Source: Mustelus asterias (Eukaryota). Taken from it: a stretch of DNA of 64,000 nt. The notes beneath the pieces are model-generated. The model was not told where the DNA came from, did no database searches, and saw only the letters and a program-made list of their open reading frames with translations. Shown one piece after another: positions 2,961-61,853 of the stretch (positions are counted from its first letter, which is position 1; every line of letters starts with the position of its first letter). Where the stretch lies: assembly GCF_964213995.1 (NCBI RefSeq), contig NW_027590147.1, positions 992,001 through 1,056,000 on the forward strand. Reading direction: 5' to 3'. The position numbers were made by a program, and so were the translations under genes.

Positions 2961-4794
2961 CCAAGGATGAAGTGGTAACGTACCCAGTGTGTTGTGCCTG
3001 ATTCAATTGACAAACAGTTTATTGAGTTACGCCGGTGGGGAGAAGCCACAGGGGCTGACCATGTGCAACTCCACCCAACAAAGAATATCATCAATTCTTA
3101 TCCAGTTACTCAGCTCATCCCGGCTGGACACAATCCAATCAGAATGGTTATAGATTACATACATTATAGGTTCAATAAAATTAGTATCTGGGCATTATGG
3201 GGCTTTGTGATCATCTCATGGACAGGTGCCCCCATCATGATGCTTTCCAGACCCCCCCTTCGGGGGGGGGTCTTTCTTGGGTTTTCTTTGTACATAGACT
3301 CCCTTAGTTAGAAATGGGGTGGATTAAAAGTTCTCAAATGGACGCAGCATCCTTCCTTTGTTTTAATCGAATGACCACATGGTCTGGGAATCATTTCTAT
3401 TTCATGCTCTCTCTTTTTAAACTCTTTTCTTCAGTATCCAATTCCAGAATTTTCCTTTTCATTGTGTTATTTGCGTCAGGAATAAATCTATGGACCTGAC
3501 AGGAAGTTTAACCCAAGATCAATCCAACACAGGATTGGTCAGAATCATTTCACGTGTCAAATTTTAAATAACCATTACAAATTAAAACTCTCATTCTCAC
3601 ATGGGTGAATTGTATCCGGATTAAAATTCCCACATGTTGAGTAAAATATCCTGGAATCCTGTCTCTGGCCAGTAAATATGGCTCCAGGTTCATAACTTCT
3701 GAACAAAAAAAGTTTGATTGATCACACTTCCTTTTTTAAAAATCTGTTTGATTTAAATACCAGACAGAAAACCTCAAAGCTTGAAGCATTCATCCCACAA
3801 ATATCATCCACACACAAACAGAGAAACTTAGCATGTGCTTTACAACAACAATAACCAAAATTAATTACTGAAGTGTTCTTGTGATTCTGTTTTTAAACTT
3901 CCAAAAATGCCTTTAATTAAAGACTCAAGGTGAGGTTAATTCCCCAGAAAGATAAACCTTAACAAATGTAGCCCAAAACAATGATAAAACATATCTACAA
4001 ACATCCACAGAAAACAAACAAAACACACAGATTCTCACAGCTCGTAAATTTCAAACAATGAATCTTCAGCATTCTCTCTCGCAGCTGTAGCTTCTTAAAG
4101 CGACAGAGCACTACAAGCTCACAACTCCTTGATTAAAATAAGATACAAGATCCTTCATTATAATTGAACCTTTTTAAAGCCAACCGACAAGGACTGATTT
4201 TAGAGGCAACATCTTTGTTGATTTAAAATCCCAAACACGTTATAGCCAAACACCGGCAAAATCTTTGTTCTTTATCTGGGGATAAAATTCTCAGTTATTC
4301 CAAATTTCTCCAGGCGATGCTTAATATTTCCGCATTTAACTTATTCCCAGAAATCCTCAGTTATAAACTAAAATAGACACGTGTTTCCGGGCAGTCACAG
4401 GAATGTGGTCAAGATAGTCCAGTCCCACAATGCCTCACATTCAATCTGCAGTCCTTCAATTATAACAGAATATGTGGCTGGATGTAGCTGCCTCGGCCAT
4501 GGTCAACCCCAACCCCAAGGGTGCCTTCTTGAACTGCTGCAATGCCTGAGGTGTAAGTACACCCACAGTGCTGTTAGGGAGCGATTTCCAGCTACACATT
4601 CCAGACTTTCACTAGCCTGCAGGTGGATATCAGATTGATATATTCCATTCAACCACACCCAAGGTGAGTTATTCCAATTCCGTTATTGTCCAGGACAATA
4701 TATTCACAATATCTTTAAAACAGAAATTAAACATTCCCATTTGATTTCAGGTATTAACATATTCTGTTAGTTTGTTCTTTATTGTCAATGTCAG

Positions 4795-11597: not shown

Positions 11598-11935
11598 CTG
11601 CAGGGTGGATGAATCTCTGACTCCCTTCCCACACTGTGAGCAGGTGACTAGCCTCTCCTCAGTGTGAATTCGCTGGTGTCTCAGCAGATTCGATGAATGA
11701 TTGGTTCCCTTCCCACAAGTGGAGCATATGAACGGTCTCTCCCCGGTGTGACTGCGTCGATGAGATTCCACCCCAGATGGGGCTCTGAATCCCTTCCCAC
11801 AGTCTCCACATTTCCATGGTTTCTCCATGGTGTCTGAGTCCTTGTGTCTTTCCACAATCAGTGAACTGGAACACTCTGATACGGGTGTGAGAATCTCAGT
11901 GCTTTTCCAGTCAAAACCTCTCCTTCCGATATCCA
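11598..11935 (-). pseudogene. Truncated C2H2 ZNF paralogue (about 2.5 fingers)
   Basis: [14 protein letters not shown] from ATG at 11828; the third finger runs into the G-rich tract. Confidence 0.8.
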
Positions 11936-28102: not shown

Positions 28103-28561
28103 ATGAAGATACTCGTCATTTGGATTGTGTGGGGGGCATTTCTAACAGGTATTTCTGGGCATCACGTTAGTTTTCTCATTTCCAAAACTTGGGTGGAATC
28201 TTACTGTTGATTACACATCACTCTTTTCTTTATCTATGTGAACATATTTTCCAGGTCTGAGCCATGGAGATTCTGTCACTCAGCCGCTGTCCTCACATGT
28301 TAAGCCAGAAGGAGACGTGGTGACATTAAACTGCAACTATGATACTGCAGAAACCATCTATAATTTATACTGGTACCGACAGCATCCAGACTCCCAGCCC
28401 GAGTACATTCTGAGAAAGCCCTCGGGGGGTAATGAATATAAAGCAGATTTTGCTAAAATCCGTTTCTCGGCTGACCTCCAAACCTCGAAGAAATCCATCA
28501 GTTTGACTATCTCGGATCTGCAGTTGTCTGACGCGGCCGTGTATTACTGCGCTTTCAGCCT
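28103..28561 (+). CDS. TCR alpha/delta V segment, intact (leader exon 28103-28148, V exon 28255-28561)
   Basis: Leader MKILVIWIVWGAFLT, phase-1 GT..AG intron, DSVTQ..LNC..LYWYRQ..DAAVYYCAFS. Confidence 0.93.
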
Positions 28562-28600
28562 CACAGTGATGGAAAGCAGTCTGACTCCTGTACAAAAACT
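28562..28600 (+). other. 23-RSS
   Basis: CACAGTG + 23 nt + ACAAAAACT. Confidence 0.95.
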
Positions 28601-42046: not shown

Positions 42047-42524
42047 ATGGGAATCCTTGTTTTCACCGTGTGTGCCTGTTTACCCTGATGAGTACCGATC
42101 AAACTAACCCACATTGTGTGGATTGAATATAAAGCTGCCCCAGTCCATCCTAATTACAGACAATGTCTAGGATTTTAGCCCCTTTGTTGGGTTCGGCTCT
42201 GATGGTCCATTAAACTCTGTGTTTAATTTCCAGGATCTTTCAGCCAGTCAGTGATACAGAGCCTGGCAGCGTTGACCAGGAAGCAGTATCAGTCTCTTAC
42301 CATCACCTGTGTTTTCTATGAGTTTATGATTTAGAAAATGGTAATTCTTTTCAGAAAAATCCAGCCCCGGATAGAGCGGGAGCGGGTCTCCAGCGGAGGG
42401 AGATTTATTGTGTTGGTGAATGAAGCAGAAAAGACATTTTCACTGGAAATTCGGGATGTGAGAGTTGAAGACAGTGCCACCTATTACTGTAAAGTTCAGC
42501 ACTGGTACTACTCACATAGGACAT
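42047..42524 (+). pseudogene. NAR-TCR V pseudogene (cassette A): leader 42047-42086, V exon from 42234
   Basis: Leader MGILVFTVCACLP with broken donor (gatgagt); SLTITCVF..ERERVSSGGRFIVLVNEAEKTFSLEIRDVRVEDSATYYCKVQHWYYSHRT; frameshifts near 42320-42350; RSS CGCACTG-12-ACAAAAACC (42525-42552). Confidence 0.88.
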
Positions 42525-42846
42525 CGCACTGGGAGAGAGATCGACAAAAACCTCAGGACAATCAAAACAGTAATTCCCAGCAATTCCCATGTTCGGTAAC
42601 TTGACTTGTCGGGTTGATGTTATTCCCGTTCAATCTAGTTTAATTTCATTGTAGTTACCACCTATCAGTTATAATTCTTCAAGGTTTTTCGCCGTTAATA
42701 AGAATCTTGCATCTCTGCTCCTGTTCCTGGGAAATTTTACCAGGAACTCCGAGAACAACCAATGTTCATTATTGATTCAAATCTCCTGAATAATCGAGAA
42801 ACACTGATTGTTCGGTAATGGCTGCTCGGCAGTTTGAGGTGTCAGT

Positions 42847-42937
42847 CATTCTTGTGCTGGGCTGACTGAGAGCGCTGACACTGTGGGGAGAATGGAGGTT
42901 GCAGATGGGTCTGGAACGGTGGTGACTGTCACAGCCG
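42847..42937 (+). other. NAR-type J segment (42886-42937) with 23-RSS, cassette A
   Basis: cattcttgt-23-CACTGTG, then GRMEVADGSGTVVTVTA and donor G|gtaagt. Confidence 0.9.
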
Positions 42938-46625: not shown

Positions 46626-46733
46626 TAATTAAATTAAACAAATTGCCGCAACAGACAGGTATTCATCCGATTGACAAGTTTTCCCGGGTAAACAGTGGCT
46701 CAACAAACAATTCATTTTATTTCTACACTGCAG

Positions 46734-47037
46734 ATTCCAGCTCAGCTGTGTCACCAAGTTCCCTTCTACAAACCTCTGCTGCCGGTGACCGGTTATTTGA
46801 AGCTGCGAATATTCAGGTCTCTTGTCAGTACACAGTACACGTACCCTCAGACCCCAGGACAGGCTCAGAAATACCTGCTTCAGACACACATTTCTGGAGA
46901 GGAGAATAAATCAAACAGGGTCGCGGGGAGGATTTCTGCTTCTATCGATTCTTCCGTCAAAATCAGCCGGTTAAAGATCTCCAAACTTTAACTGAGCGAC
47001 TCCGCTGTTTATTACTGTGAACTGAGTTGGCGCACAG
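46734..47037 (+). pseudogene. Supporting V-delta pseudogene (cassette A)
   Basis: Acceptor ctgcag; CEYSG..CQYT..QKYLLQTHISGEE..GRISASIDSSVKISRLKISKL*LSDSAVYYCELSWRT; frameshifts and TAA at 46989. Confidence 0.88.
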
Positions 47038-47338
47038 CACAATCGCACAGAACACGGAGAGAGCTGTACAAAAACCTGGACATGATGAGGGTTACAGACA
47101 CAGTGACACAGAACACGGAGACAGCTGTACAAAAACCTGAACATGCATTTCAGATTCTTGTGAGCTCACCATGTTCAGGTTTCTGTACACCTCTCTCCGT
47201 GTTCTGTATTACTGTGTCTGAAATCCTCACCAGGTCCAGGTATTTGTACAGCTCTCTCCGTGTTCTGTATCACTGTGTCTGGAATCCTCACCATGTTCAA
47301 GTTTCTGTACGGCTCTGTCCCTGTTCTGCATCACTGTG
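47038..47338. repeat. Array of five 23-RSSs with a 61-bp period (two on +, three on -), convergent
   Basis: +: 47038-47076, 47099-47137; -: 47300-47338, 47239-47277, 47178-47216; each is heptamer + exactly 23 nt + nonamer. Confidence 0.92.
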
Positions 47339-47644
47339 CTGTGCGCCCACTCAGTGCACAGTAATACACAGCGGAGTCGCTCAATCGCAGCTTGGAGATC
47401 TTTAACCAGCTGATTTTTTCGACAGGGTCGACAGAAGCAGAAATTCTCTGCCCGGCAGCGTTTTCTTTGATCGCCTCGCCTGATGTGTGTCTCTTAAGCA
47501 AGTATTTTGGGGTCTCTCCTGGAGAGTGACGGTACCAGTAGAGTGTGTGTTGACAAAATCCTGGATATTCACAGTTTAAAGTAATGGTGTCGTCAGCAGC
47601 ACAGGTTTGGAGAGACGGATTCTGTGACACAGATAAACTGGATT
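47339..47644 (-). CDS. Supporting V-delta of NAR-TCR (cassette B), intact and leaderless
   Basis: Phase-1 acceptor ctgcag; SVSQNP..LNCEYPGFCQHTLYWYRH..DSAVYYCALSGRT; extra Cys in CDR1; no leader exon seen nearby. Confidence 0.92.
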
Positions 47645-49669: not shown

Positions 49670-49761
49670 CAGCTGAGACAGTCACCACCGTCCCAGACCC
49701 GTCTGTAAATCTCCACTCTCCCCACAGTGTCAGCGCTCTCAGTCAGCCCAGTACACGAATG
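49670..49761 (-). CDS. NAR-type J segment (49670-49722) with 23-RSS, cassette B
   Basis: cattcgtgt-23-CACTGTG, then GEWRFTDGSGTVVTVSA and donor G|gtaagt; phase matches the supporting V acceptor. Confidence 0.9.
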
Positions 49762-50092
49762 ACAGACACCTCAAACTGATGGGGAAAAAATTACCGAATA
49801 GTCAGCGTTTATCAATTATTCAGGGGTTATAGATCAATAATGAAGTATGATAGTTTTATAATTCCCATTGGAACAAAGTGTTCCTTGGGACACTCTGAAC
49901 TCTTGGCAAAATGGCCCAGGAACGGAGTGGAGATGGACGCTTCGTAGAAATGGAATAAAAAAGTTAAAGAAAGATAACTGAAGGGAGGAAATTACAACGA
50001 AATGAAATCATGTTGCAACGATAATAACAACAACCCGACAAGCTATGGTCCGTGTCCTGGAAATTATTGCTTCGCTTGTTCAGAAATACTTA

Positions 50093-50120
50093 AGTATTTG
50101 TTCTCCTCTCTTCCACTGTG
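50093..50120 (-). other. 12-RSS of the NAR-TCR V
   Basis: CACAGTG + gaagagaggaga (12 nt) + ACAAATACT. Confidence 0.92.
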
Positions 50121-50602
50121 GTGTCCCATGTGCGTAGTACCAGTGCTGAGCTTTACAGTAATAGGTGGCGGTGTCTTCAATTCTCATGTCCCGAATTTCC
50201 AGCGAAAATGTCTTTTCTGCTTCATTCACCGACACAACAAACCTCCCTCCGCTGGAGATCCGCTCCCGCTCTGTCCCAGTCTGGGTTTGTCTGAAGAAAT
50301 GGCCATTTTTTAAATCATAAACACCATTGAAAACACAGGTGATGGTGAGAGACTGACACTCCTTCCTGGTCACCGCTGCCGGGCTTTGAGTCACTGACTG
50401 ACTGAAACATCCTGGAAATTCAACACAGAGAGTTTAATGGACCATCAGAGCCGAACCGCACAACGGGGCTAAAACCCCAGACAGTGTTTGTAATTGAGAT
50501 GGACTGGGGCAGCTTTATGTTCAATCCACACAATGTGGGTTAGTTTGATCGGTACTCACGGGGTAAATAGGCACACATGGTGAAAACAAGAAGGATTTCC
50601 AT
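50121..50602 (-). CDS. NAR-TCR V segment (cassette B), intact: leader 50560-50602, V exon 50121-50411
   Basis: MEILLVFTMCAYLP|RCFSQSVTQSPAAVTRKECQSLTITC..ERERISSGGRFVVSVNEAEKTFSLEI..DTATYYCKAQHWYYAHGT; IgNAR-like with no CDR2; FR1 Cys. Confidence 0.92.
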
Positions 50603-51594: not shown

Positions 51595-52809
51595 ATGTGA
51601 AAGAATTTATGGGCTCCCGTTTTCATTCTTGTTCTGAAGCTAGGTGAGTTCTTTAGCTTTCATTAGAACGAAGTTTTGTCACATAACTATTGAAGGAGGG
51701 ACGGATGTGTGAACAAGGGGTGAACTATGGGCCTTTAAGGGGATAATAGAGGATGGATGGATGAACAGACGGACAGTAGGATGGATGGAGGAATGGACGG
51801 ATGCGAGTTTTGAGTGACCATTCACTTTGATTGGAGTGAAGTTTACAATAGTTTGCTGCAGTTAAAACTTAGGTAATTGGAGGGAAAGAATATTGGATGA
51901 ATGTATGGAAAATGCTGAAGGTGTTGGTTCAAATTGCACTTTAAAAACCAAATAGAATTCTTGCCTCTATTGATAATGTGCAAATACAAAACAAAAGATT
52001 TATTCACAGATAATCAGGCTTCGGTTGAAGTATGACAACCACGAGAGAAAGAGAGTTAATGTTTCGAGTCCATATGATTCTTCCACAGAATCTGAACAAA
52101 AGTCATATGGACTCCAGATGTTAACTCTGCATTTGTCTTCACAGATGCTGCCAGACCTGCTGAGTTTATGCAGCAGATTCTGTTTATATATGCTGATTGA
52201 AATGTTAGTTAAAGTAAACTTCCTCTTAACAGTTAAGAAACTGCATGAATTTTTGAAGGTAGGAGATTTTCAGTGCAATGCGGAAAGAACAGACTGCGGG
52301 GTAAAATAGTAACTCCATCGTCTGCCAATGCGGGTAATATATACTGAATATTCTCGTTATTTGCTTTAATACTTAATGATTCTATGTCGAGGAGAATGAA
52401 TGAATGTTGACTGAGGTTCCCCATATTTAAACGTATATCTATTTTCTGGTTACCATTTGAAGGACTGTGTTATTCTGATACTGTAAAGCAAACTGCACCG
52501 TCAGTATCATGTTTAGAACAAGAACGCATGGTGTTGCCCTATTCATTCTCCACAGACAGCCGCCGCTATGATCTGCTCTGGCACCGACAAAATCCGGGGG
52601 AGGAGTCGGTATTTTTAATCAAAAGGAATTCGGAGGGAAATACAAAGAAAGCTGAGCGTGTGGGAGGCCGATTCTGGTCAATACTCTGAGTATCAGATCG
52701 TTTCTTCAGTTTCACCCTGGCAGATGTACAGCTGAGTGACAGTGAGGTGTATTATTGTGCGCTGATCATTCACAGTGATACAAACTGATACAAGACCCTT
52801 ACGGAAACT
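51595..52809 (+). pseudogene. TCR alpha/delta V pseudogene (leader 51595-51643, V exon 52463-52770, 23-RSS 52771-52809)
   Basis: Leader M*KNLWAPVFILVLKL; DTVKQT..LPY(Cys lost)..LLWHRQ..IL*..DSEVYYCALI; CACAGTG-23-ACGGAAACT. Confidence 0.88.
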
Positions 52810-53482
52810 ACCACTGGACTGCAACATCAGCCGAGTGATAGGAGTTCACTTTGTGAACTCTGAACCTTCACCTCTGGCAGCTGCAGAATCAGACCGAGAC
52901 CGTTTATTGCTGTGTGAATGTAGTCGGAAGTAGAGATGATCGATGTGAAAAGGCATTCTGAATGACTGAGTTCCTGACAAAATAGGGTGAGAGAAAAGCA
53001 AGGAAAAATAAACAGGAAGATAGAACGGCAGCGAAAAAAGGGAGCAAAAGGCCGTGAGACACAAAGAGGTAGCGCGCTGGACGTCAAGGTGGACGCAGAG
53101 AGTTAAAGAAAGACTCTCTGAGAGTTAGAATCAGAAAAATAGAAAAGAAGAAAGTAAGAGAAGAATATAGAGAAGGGGGAGAGGGAAAATAGGGAGATAA
53201 TAAGAGAGAGAACGAGACAGGGCCTGAGACAAAGGCAGAGAAACAAAATTGCACTTTAACCTCATCTTATTCGATTTCTAATGTGTGATTATATTTTATC
53301 AGTGGCCCCACTAAATATAATCACACATGAGTGGAATAAGATCAGTGGCCCCAGGAAATGAATCACATCCCTCAGTAAAGATAGTTAGCTTGCTGGTTTG
53401 AGTGTACTCACTGAATGACTGATCCCACCAGGAAATATTTAATCCTGTCGGTGAAAGAACATCAGCTCACCCAAGATTAACA

Positions 53483-61354: not shown

Positions 61355-61393
61355 GGTTTTTGCTTGAAGGTGGGCCTTCTTTCTATCATTGTG
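61355..61393 (-). other. 23-RSS
   Basis: CACAATG + 23 nt + GCAAAAACC. Confidence 0.9.
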
Positions 61394-61853
61394 CGTCTGA
61401 ACGTGCAGCAATAAGCGGCAGCATCAGTTAGGCTCAGATCGAATATATTTAAACTGATTAATTTGTTCGAGGCCTGGAGATCCACATAGAACCGACTTTT
61501 ATAAACATCTTCATATTCATAACCACCAGGATCTTTCCGCACTATAAACATGGGACGCGTGTCTGGATATTGTTGGGACCAGGACAGCCTATAGTCGCTC
61601 TCAGTGGTTTGATAGCTACAGGTTAAATTCACGATTTCGCCTTCTCTCTTAACATCTGATGAGAGCGGCTGGGTGACAGAATCTCCATGTCTCAGATCTG
61701 GAAATAACAAAACAGAAAATGGTCAGACGTGCGTATGATAAAAGTTTGGTCTGGAGCCATGCTTGGGAAATGTAAGAAACGGTGGAATGTATTTTGCACA
61801 TAATTACCTGTTAGGAATGGTCCCCACATTACCCACACACCGAGCAGCCACAT
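61394..61853 (-). CDS. TCR alpha/delta V segment, open frame (leader 61808-61853, V exon 61394-61697); paralogue of the 28.1 kb V
   Basis: MWLLGVWVMWGPFLT|DLRHGDSVTQPLSS..LTC..LSWSQQ..DAAAYCCTFRR. Confidence 0.88.

Follow-up and report, generated by a model that had tools for sequence, protein, structure and literature searches.

The NAR-TCR is reportedly a doubly rearranging TCR-delta of cartilaginous fish, attributed to Criscitiello 2006, and a partially joined mammalian VH is said to have been described by Wang and Miller in 2012. According to PMC1845163, a NAR-TCR V is marked by a leader, an a-b loop that contains a Cys and the lack of the canonical Trp of WYRK, and the supporting V-delta by the lack of a leader and by a Cys in CDR1; background on this receptor was likewise drawn from PMC5931798, PMC12227049, PMC6795676 and PMC3149040. 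RAG joining in shark germ cells and VD-J IgH clusters are treated in PMC2193156, PMC5192425 and PMC4279169, where neonatal expression of some joined shark Ig genes is also documented. Germ-cell RAG activity in sharks is described in these papers for antibody genes, and one review (PMC5192425) presents it as peculiar to them.

The cassette analysed here resembles these VD-J IgH clusters and the joined L chains, as portrayed in the same papers, in its VD-J layout, retained introns, removal of the RSSs at the joint, apparent fixation in the population and predicted limitation of CDR3 diversity, and it differs from them in belonging to a T-cell receptor. With the species-specific type III IgNAR of nurse shark (PMC4622739) it shares a single-domain NAR V family that has lost a junction to a germline fusion and is thereby restricted in CDR3; type III IgNAR, however, is an antibody whose fusion is D1-D2 and for which neonatal expression has been shown. 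Examples of germline-joined TCR Vs are the marsupial TCR-mu supporting V (PMC3457774) and newt TRD V-J (PMC12698447), which are likewise inherited joined segments in antigen-receptor loci, including TCR-delta-type loci. These joins are complete and the marsupial one, probably retrotransposed, lies in the supporting domain, whereas the join considered here is partial, sits in the tip domain that binds antigen and has kept its introns. No report of a germline-joined NAR-TCR was found in the literature consulted; Criscitiello 2006, Ott 2021, Deiss 2019, Matz 2021, Flajnik 2024 or their supplements may hold an earlier mention; a search of the supplement of PMC3964593 gave 0 matches.

The window (the whole stretch of DNA analysed, 64 kb of Mustelus asterias) carries on its minus strand a NAR-TCR cassette in the order leader, IgNAR-like V, 12-RSS, J with a 23-RSS and leaderless supporting V-delta, the last about 2 kb beyond J (Table 1). 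The V exon is an open frame from 50411 to 50121, in which the YYC Cys codon at 50157 is followed by KAQHWYYAHGT and, 37 nt from the Cys codon, by the heptamer; the V-side and J-side nonamers stand 331 nt apart. In the inverted pseudogene copy (plus strand), QHWYYSHRT is followed by CGCACTG-12-ACAAAAACC at 42525-42552, the CAC of the heptamer being gone. An earlier note on this DNA had described the extension of V up to a 12-RSS, a J 23-RSS about 330 bp away and the same layout in the pseudogene, all of which were recovered when the sequence was re-read. Its description of the cassette as intact applies to the frames and splice signals, which are open, and has to be qualified for the J nonamer with its 4 mismatches. 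When both strands of the 64 kb were scanned at no more than 3 mismatches to the RSS consensus, this J RSS escaped notice, and it surfaced at 4 mismatches; the scan returned two 12-spacer matches, the one at 50120-50093 and one overlapping a 23-RSS at 52771. Within the 2,025-nt intron ahead of the supporting V, four ATG..GT candidates were found, none of them leader-like in hydrophobicity. Tandem 23-RSSs, two to four at a 61-nt period, were seen behind supporting Vs in the window (47178-47338, minus; 47038-47137, plus) and at L096-L098, L102 and L103.

Table 1. Features of the NAR-TCR cassette and its surroundings in the window, and contigs from other sequencing runs that cross the junction.
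Feature	Position	Strand	Remarks
NAR-TCR V leader exon	50560..50602	-	43 nt, GT donor; starts MEILLVF..
IgNAR-like NAR-TCR V exon to native V end	50133..50411	-	V end 25 nt from Cys codon; maybe 27, to 50131
Putative germline junction and D remnant	50121..50132	-	12 nt; last 8 nt TGGGACAC (50128-50121) similar to free D 3' ends
12-RSS CACAGTG-12-ACAAATACT	50093..50120	-	homolog of D 3' RSS in split cassettes
Putative former D-J interval	49762..50092	-	62-65% identity with split-cassette D-J interval; unrelated to split V-D interval
J 23-RSS	49723..49761	+	perfect heptamer, 23-nt spacer, nonamer ACACGAATG with 4 mismatches
NAR-TCR J (GEWRFTDGSGTVVTVSA)	49670..49722	-	GT donor
Leaderless supporting V-delta exon	47339..47644	-	open; CDR1 Cys (CEYPGFCQH); second in-phase acceptor 9 nt upstream
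Three tandem 23-RSSs behind supporting V	47178..47338	-	61-nt period
Inverted pseudogene copy of L-VD-J	42047..42937	+	~77% identity from leader to J; same 37-nt end; frameshifts; leader donor lost
Supporting V of pseudogene cassette	46730..47137	+	frameshifted, with two 23-RSSs; start approximate
X3 contig across junction	49839-50218		organism A; 10 differences
X5 contig across junction	49871-50359		organism B, another study; 12 differences
X6 contig across junction	49736-50169		organism B, same study as X5; 18 differences

All three NAR-TCR marks were found in the window V, namely the leader, the extra FR1 Cys (RKECQSL) and an F where the canonical Trp would stand (GHFFRQ), with KAQHWYY encoded by the V itself. 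The downstream V (47644-47339) bears both marks of a supporting V-delta together with its own 23-RSS. A predicted NCBI protein labelled Mustelus asterias is identical over the window V, and residues ~20-127 of P0008 had VNARs as best single-domain PDB matches; this NCBI model joins V to J via a predicted intron over unrearranged DNA and is not a transcript. In a protein tree of 88 columns, which gives no date for the join and in which 33 of 64 inner forks are open, the window V was placed with NAR-TCR-type Vs of many sharks, apart from the IgNAR Vs of this genome (100/100). Proteins P0051 and P0057 display the layout of a two-V chain on C-delta in other V families. No C exon was located for the window copy; J and C exons trail related cassettes on other contigs. 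As far as the available NAR-TCR descriptions go, the likeness covers the leader and IgNAR-like V, a J of its own, the leaderless supporting V-delta and, apparently, the position among TCR alpha/delta-type Vs. The difference lies in the D: no free D was found between V and J in the window cassette, where the pre-joined VD would meet J directly by 12/23, whereas a free D is present in 15 split relatives of the same genome.

The other V segments of the window are of a type that we take, from their motifs, to be TCR alpha/delta. Ordinary ones were noted at about 28260-28600 (plus; open in the part read), 52450-52810 (plus; carrying a stop) and 61355-61700 (minus; Ser at the conserved Trp). Among them occur C2H2 zinc-finger-like frames with HTGERPF linkers, near 11730 (minus), 16900 (plus) and 21975 (minus), and 23-RSS-like sites with no V frame ahead are found at 4564 (plus) and 40714 (minus). 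Elsewhere in the genome, an IgNAR-like V followed by several Ds was observed at L061 and L062 (G000 C71), on the same 20-Mb contig as NAR-TCR cassettes. L066 (G000 C71:2929530-2929784, minus) is a fully joined IgNAR-like V-J exon without RSS, which we presume may be of the UrIg kind.

A search of the genome with the V returned at least 88 matches, 150 of 831 candidates being scored. Thirty loci from this search and 40 further stretches were read, and L067 (without V at the anchor) and L068 (a duplicate of L030) were left out of the counts. The split layout, V-22RSS, 12-D-12, 22/23RSS-J, was encountered in 15 cassettes; a D 3' RSS pattern matched 18 times (control, 0), in these 15 fully split cassettes and in three one-off rearranged ones, one of which was assigned by position only. 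The fused layout is that of the window, and all 40 scored matches to the window V-J interval (51 candidates) fell at fused-type places, 38 of them read directly. The joined form (40 copies) is therefore more numerous in this assembly than the fully split form (15), with the reservation that the 40 are assembled copies among which both haplotypes may be counted; since 12 near-identical copies represent about seven sequence types, several real loci must exist. Good 22-RSSs also follow the NAR-TCR Vs of L033, L037 and L038, with no matching D or J within ~4.2 kb, and L063-L065 are degraded NAR-TCR relics, the J RSS of L063 having a 12-nt spacer. The ENA protein P0001 carries a fused-type end like that of the second, more distant fused subfamily on a V whose CDR1 is of another kind (GGFFARP type), which suggests either exchange between V families or another species' version.

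Comparison of the two layouts indicates that V and D are very probably joined in the window cassette. Its 12-RSS and interval align over their full length with the corresponding parts of split cassettes, the D 3' RSS and the D-J interval; the interval alignment scored 214, against 58.6 +/- 11.4 for shuffles (maximum 98, n=500) and 64 for the split V-D interval. Upstream of the V end, the cassette is ~84-85% identical to split cassettes. Given D-J homology behind the 12-RSS and homology to the V end before it, what is missing is the V RSS, a V-D interval of ~400 nt and the D 5' RSS, everything else, introns included, having been kept. The left break would lie no more than 4 nt from the native V end and the right break within the D-like tail. 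The same outcome, a whole V end followed by C and a trimmed D, was observed on an unrelated V at L045. In all 22 split-type Vs examined the coding part stops 25-27 nt past the Cys codon and a 22-spacer RSS follows, so that the case held against a join in the earlier note, that of NAR-TCR Vs being natively extended with a 12-RSS, does not apply. The shared joint and the D-J homology bear out its proposal of a germline V-D join older than the duplication, with one somatic junction left in the NAR domain.

The origin of the bases at the junction was assigned differently from that note, which had derived the aromatic core from a D. Seven of the 22 split Vs already end in HWYG, YWYY or YWYW, and in the three tested, 21-23 of 25 positions agree with the beginning of the fused end. 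The bamboo-shark protein P0007 has YWYYT ahead of RSS-like sequence, implying a V end of 27 nt. Because split Vs and P0007 end alike, the aromatic HWYY is V-encoded. The extra bases beyond the V end number 10-12, only 8-12 nt of the fused end coming from D or junction, and the last 8 of them share 7 nt with one of eight free D sequences. The 25-nt D candidate put forward earlier was rejected, its overlap with the eight free Ds being at most 7 nt (TGGGACA). A search for a free D equal to the fused tail gave one pattern match, on an unrelated contig, against one in the control, and no exact free D in the genome.

RAG is the likely agent of this join, as the joint sits at coding ends with RSSs and intervening DNA gone and introns kept, as in the joined shark clusters, apart from 2-4 heptamer-like bases. 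An ordinary germline deletion independent of RAG could also have broken into the V heptamer and rejoined inside the D, the product surviving through its open frame and usable 12-RSS. The leftover bases, CA (or CACA for a V end of 25 nt), correspond to the start of the V heptamer, which is not expected to stay in a clean RAG joint; TGGG comes next, a sequence that is present in D tails and with which, in the form ATGGG, most V-RSS spacers also begin, and the L059/L060 subfamily reads CACAGATGGG here. No P nucleotides were found at the junction. In view of this and of the heptamer-like bases, the joint by itself is no proof of RAG. Nevertheless, we consider such a deletion unlikely: both breaks fall within windows of a few bases at coding ends, no microhomology exists at the exact joint, the assembly contains further RAG-type joints within the same family and, with the 27-nt V end that is seen in 4 of 22 split Vs and implied by P0007, the heptamer coincidence shrinks to two bases (~1 in 16). 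No close split parent of the fused family was found in this genome and, with none surviving there, the joint cannot be reconstructed base by base.

Fourteen of the 40 fused copies look intact and 26 are damaged. Among the 12 near-identical copies, eight are intact with leader, splice signals, open frames and heptamers; of the others, two are without start codon and donor, one is without acceptor and one lacks the Cys of the supporting V. The second subfamily has leader, open frames, splice signals and heptamers in 6/6 copies, the other 22 copies being damaged. Between the two intact subfamilies, dN/dS was 0.41 when V, J and supporting V were taken together (Fisher p 2-4e-5) and 0.35-0.45 when V was taken by itself (p 0.01-0.05), V dN (0.08-0.09) amounting to about half the divergence of the adjacent intron (0.17-0.19). 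In the dead-copy control, six pairs ranged from 0.46 to 2.24 and overlap the intact pair, the pooled value of 1.15 coming from two pairs only. The leader intron lies 9-13% from split Vs vs 17-19% from the other fused subfamily, and gene conversion may be blurring the V. In contigs of the four sequencing runs compared, all with intronic cover, no splice or V-J joint was found.

On these data, continued use of the fused family appears fairly probable. It could instead be decaying cargo of segmental duplications, the window copy being neither rearranged nor expressed, and the proportion of damaged copies and the overlap with the dead-copy control are compatible with this. So are the J nonamers, which show 3-4 mismatches in the fused family vs 1-2 in most split cassettes; that of the window is the weakest among open fused copies, ACAAGAATG being present in 15 of the 18 copies L001-L018. 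Decay of this sort is nonetheless quite unlikely, since leader, splice signals, frames and heptamers persist in the eight near-identical and all six distant-subfamily copies and V dN remains well short of intron divergence.

Fused and split cassettes were separated at 100/98 in an unrooted upstream tree (51 rows) and at 100/100 in an unrooted downstream tree (42 rows), and L045, with its separate V-D joint, was placed with its split twins. These DNA trees were built without L061-L066 and L070 (IgNAR or other V loci), L039/L040/L047 (too degraded) and exact duplicates. The two fused subfamilies are 31-32% apart in the interval, yet only 2-4 of 37 positions differ in the junction end, and we infer a single origin of the fused family. 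Among 32 pieces listed, contigs bridging the junction came from three of the four sequencing runs compared, under two species labels. In 59 longer protein matches from other named genera the fused end was absent, but these are gene models and no real test. On this comparison of copies and animals the join is judged germline and old. A natively long, D-less V with its own 12-RSS, rearranging like a light chain, or a somatic T-cell rearrangement caught in the assembly, as the six one-off rearrangements of split cassettes described below could be, is very improbable: the 12-RSS and interval are D-derived by homology, and a somatic origin is excluded because one junction is common to copies ~30% diverged and to other animals.

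An old germ-cell V-D fusion by RAG, with a single VD-to-J join left to the T cell, is thus regarded as the probable history as a whole. In a germ cell, RAG would have cut at the signals of V and D; once the ends had been trimmed and joined, the fused cassette would have been duplicated many times, often as an inverted pair of an intact and a dead copy. In a T cell, VD and J would be brought together by RAG in one 12/23 step; after rearrangement of the supporting V to D-J-C-delta, a two-V chain would be produced by splicing, the outcome being a three-domain TCR-delta chain. CDR3 variation would arise at one junction rather than two. Since (H/Y)WYY is set back 10-12 nt from the cut end, the motif would be shielded by the D remnant and seldom removed by trimming; the predicted CDR3 is constant and aromatic in its N-terminal half, variable in its C-terminal half and not fully invariant. 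A homology-directed invariant junction was considered and rejected: the longest microhomology between V-D and J ends (4 nt) is out of frame, only two of eight end overlaps (2-3 nt) are in frame, and no sign of a programmed invariant junction was seen. As a blunt VD-J joint is out of frame like this longest overlap, junctional processing would still be required, which predicts a half-fixed receptor. The innate-like specificity suggested in the earlier note is conjectural.

Other rearranged segments were noticed in the genome. Six one-off partial rearrangements of split cassettes (L045, L021, L050, L054, L025/L099 and L048/L100), which could be germline or somatic, comprise a single V-D join, three joins of D to J, a D attached to foreign sequence and an inversion, the last consisting of a V fused to a J signal plus a precise head-to-head signal joint. 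At L092 (~650-720), L094 and L095 (G000 C119, C96 and C436), the supporting V-delta of a split NAR-TCR cassette is fused to what looks like a D, the junction being common to all three; behind it come a 23-RSS that was found only at these three places and J segments, as well as a C exon in the case of C119. A second germline join is the probable explanation, one that recalls the joined marsupial TCR-mu supporting V.

A V-D join that is fixed and amplified in a TCR's antigen-binding domain would extend germ-cell joining to the TCR-delta locus. As a tentative and rather doubtful extrapolation, germline RAG may have repeatedly edited the shark TCR-delta locus, leaving behind the V-D join of the fused family, the separate join of supporting V to D in three cassettes and perhaps also the one-off D-J, V-D and inverted joints, and selection may have multiplied the pre-joined cassette until it became this shark's largest NAR-TCR family, providing early-life semi-invariant T cells with a fixed aromatic (H/Y)WYY face as a counterpart of type III IgNAR and IgM1gj. 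The presence of joined and split cassettes in one genome makes the effect of one lost junction on repertoire, expression timing and cassette choice measurable. Should the fused family dominate in pups, it would open a way to study innate-like T cells in the most ancient group that has RAG-based immunity, as well as the binding targets of NAR-TCR.
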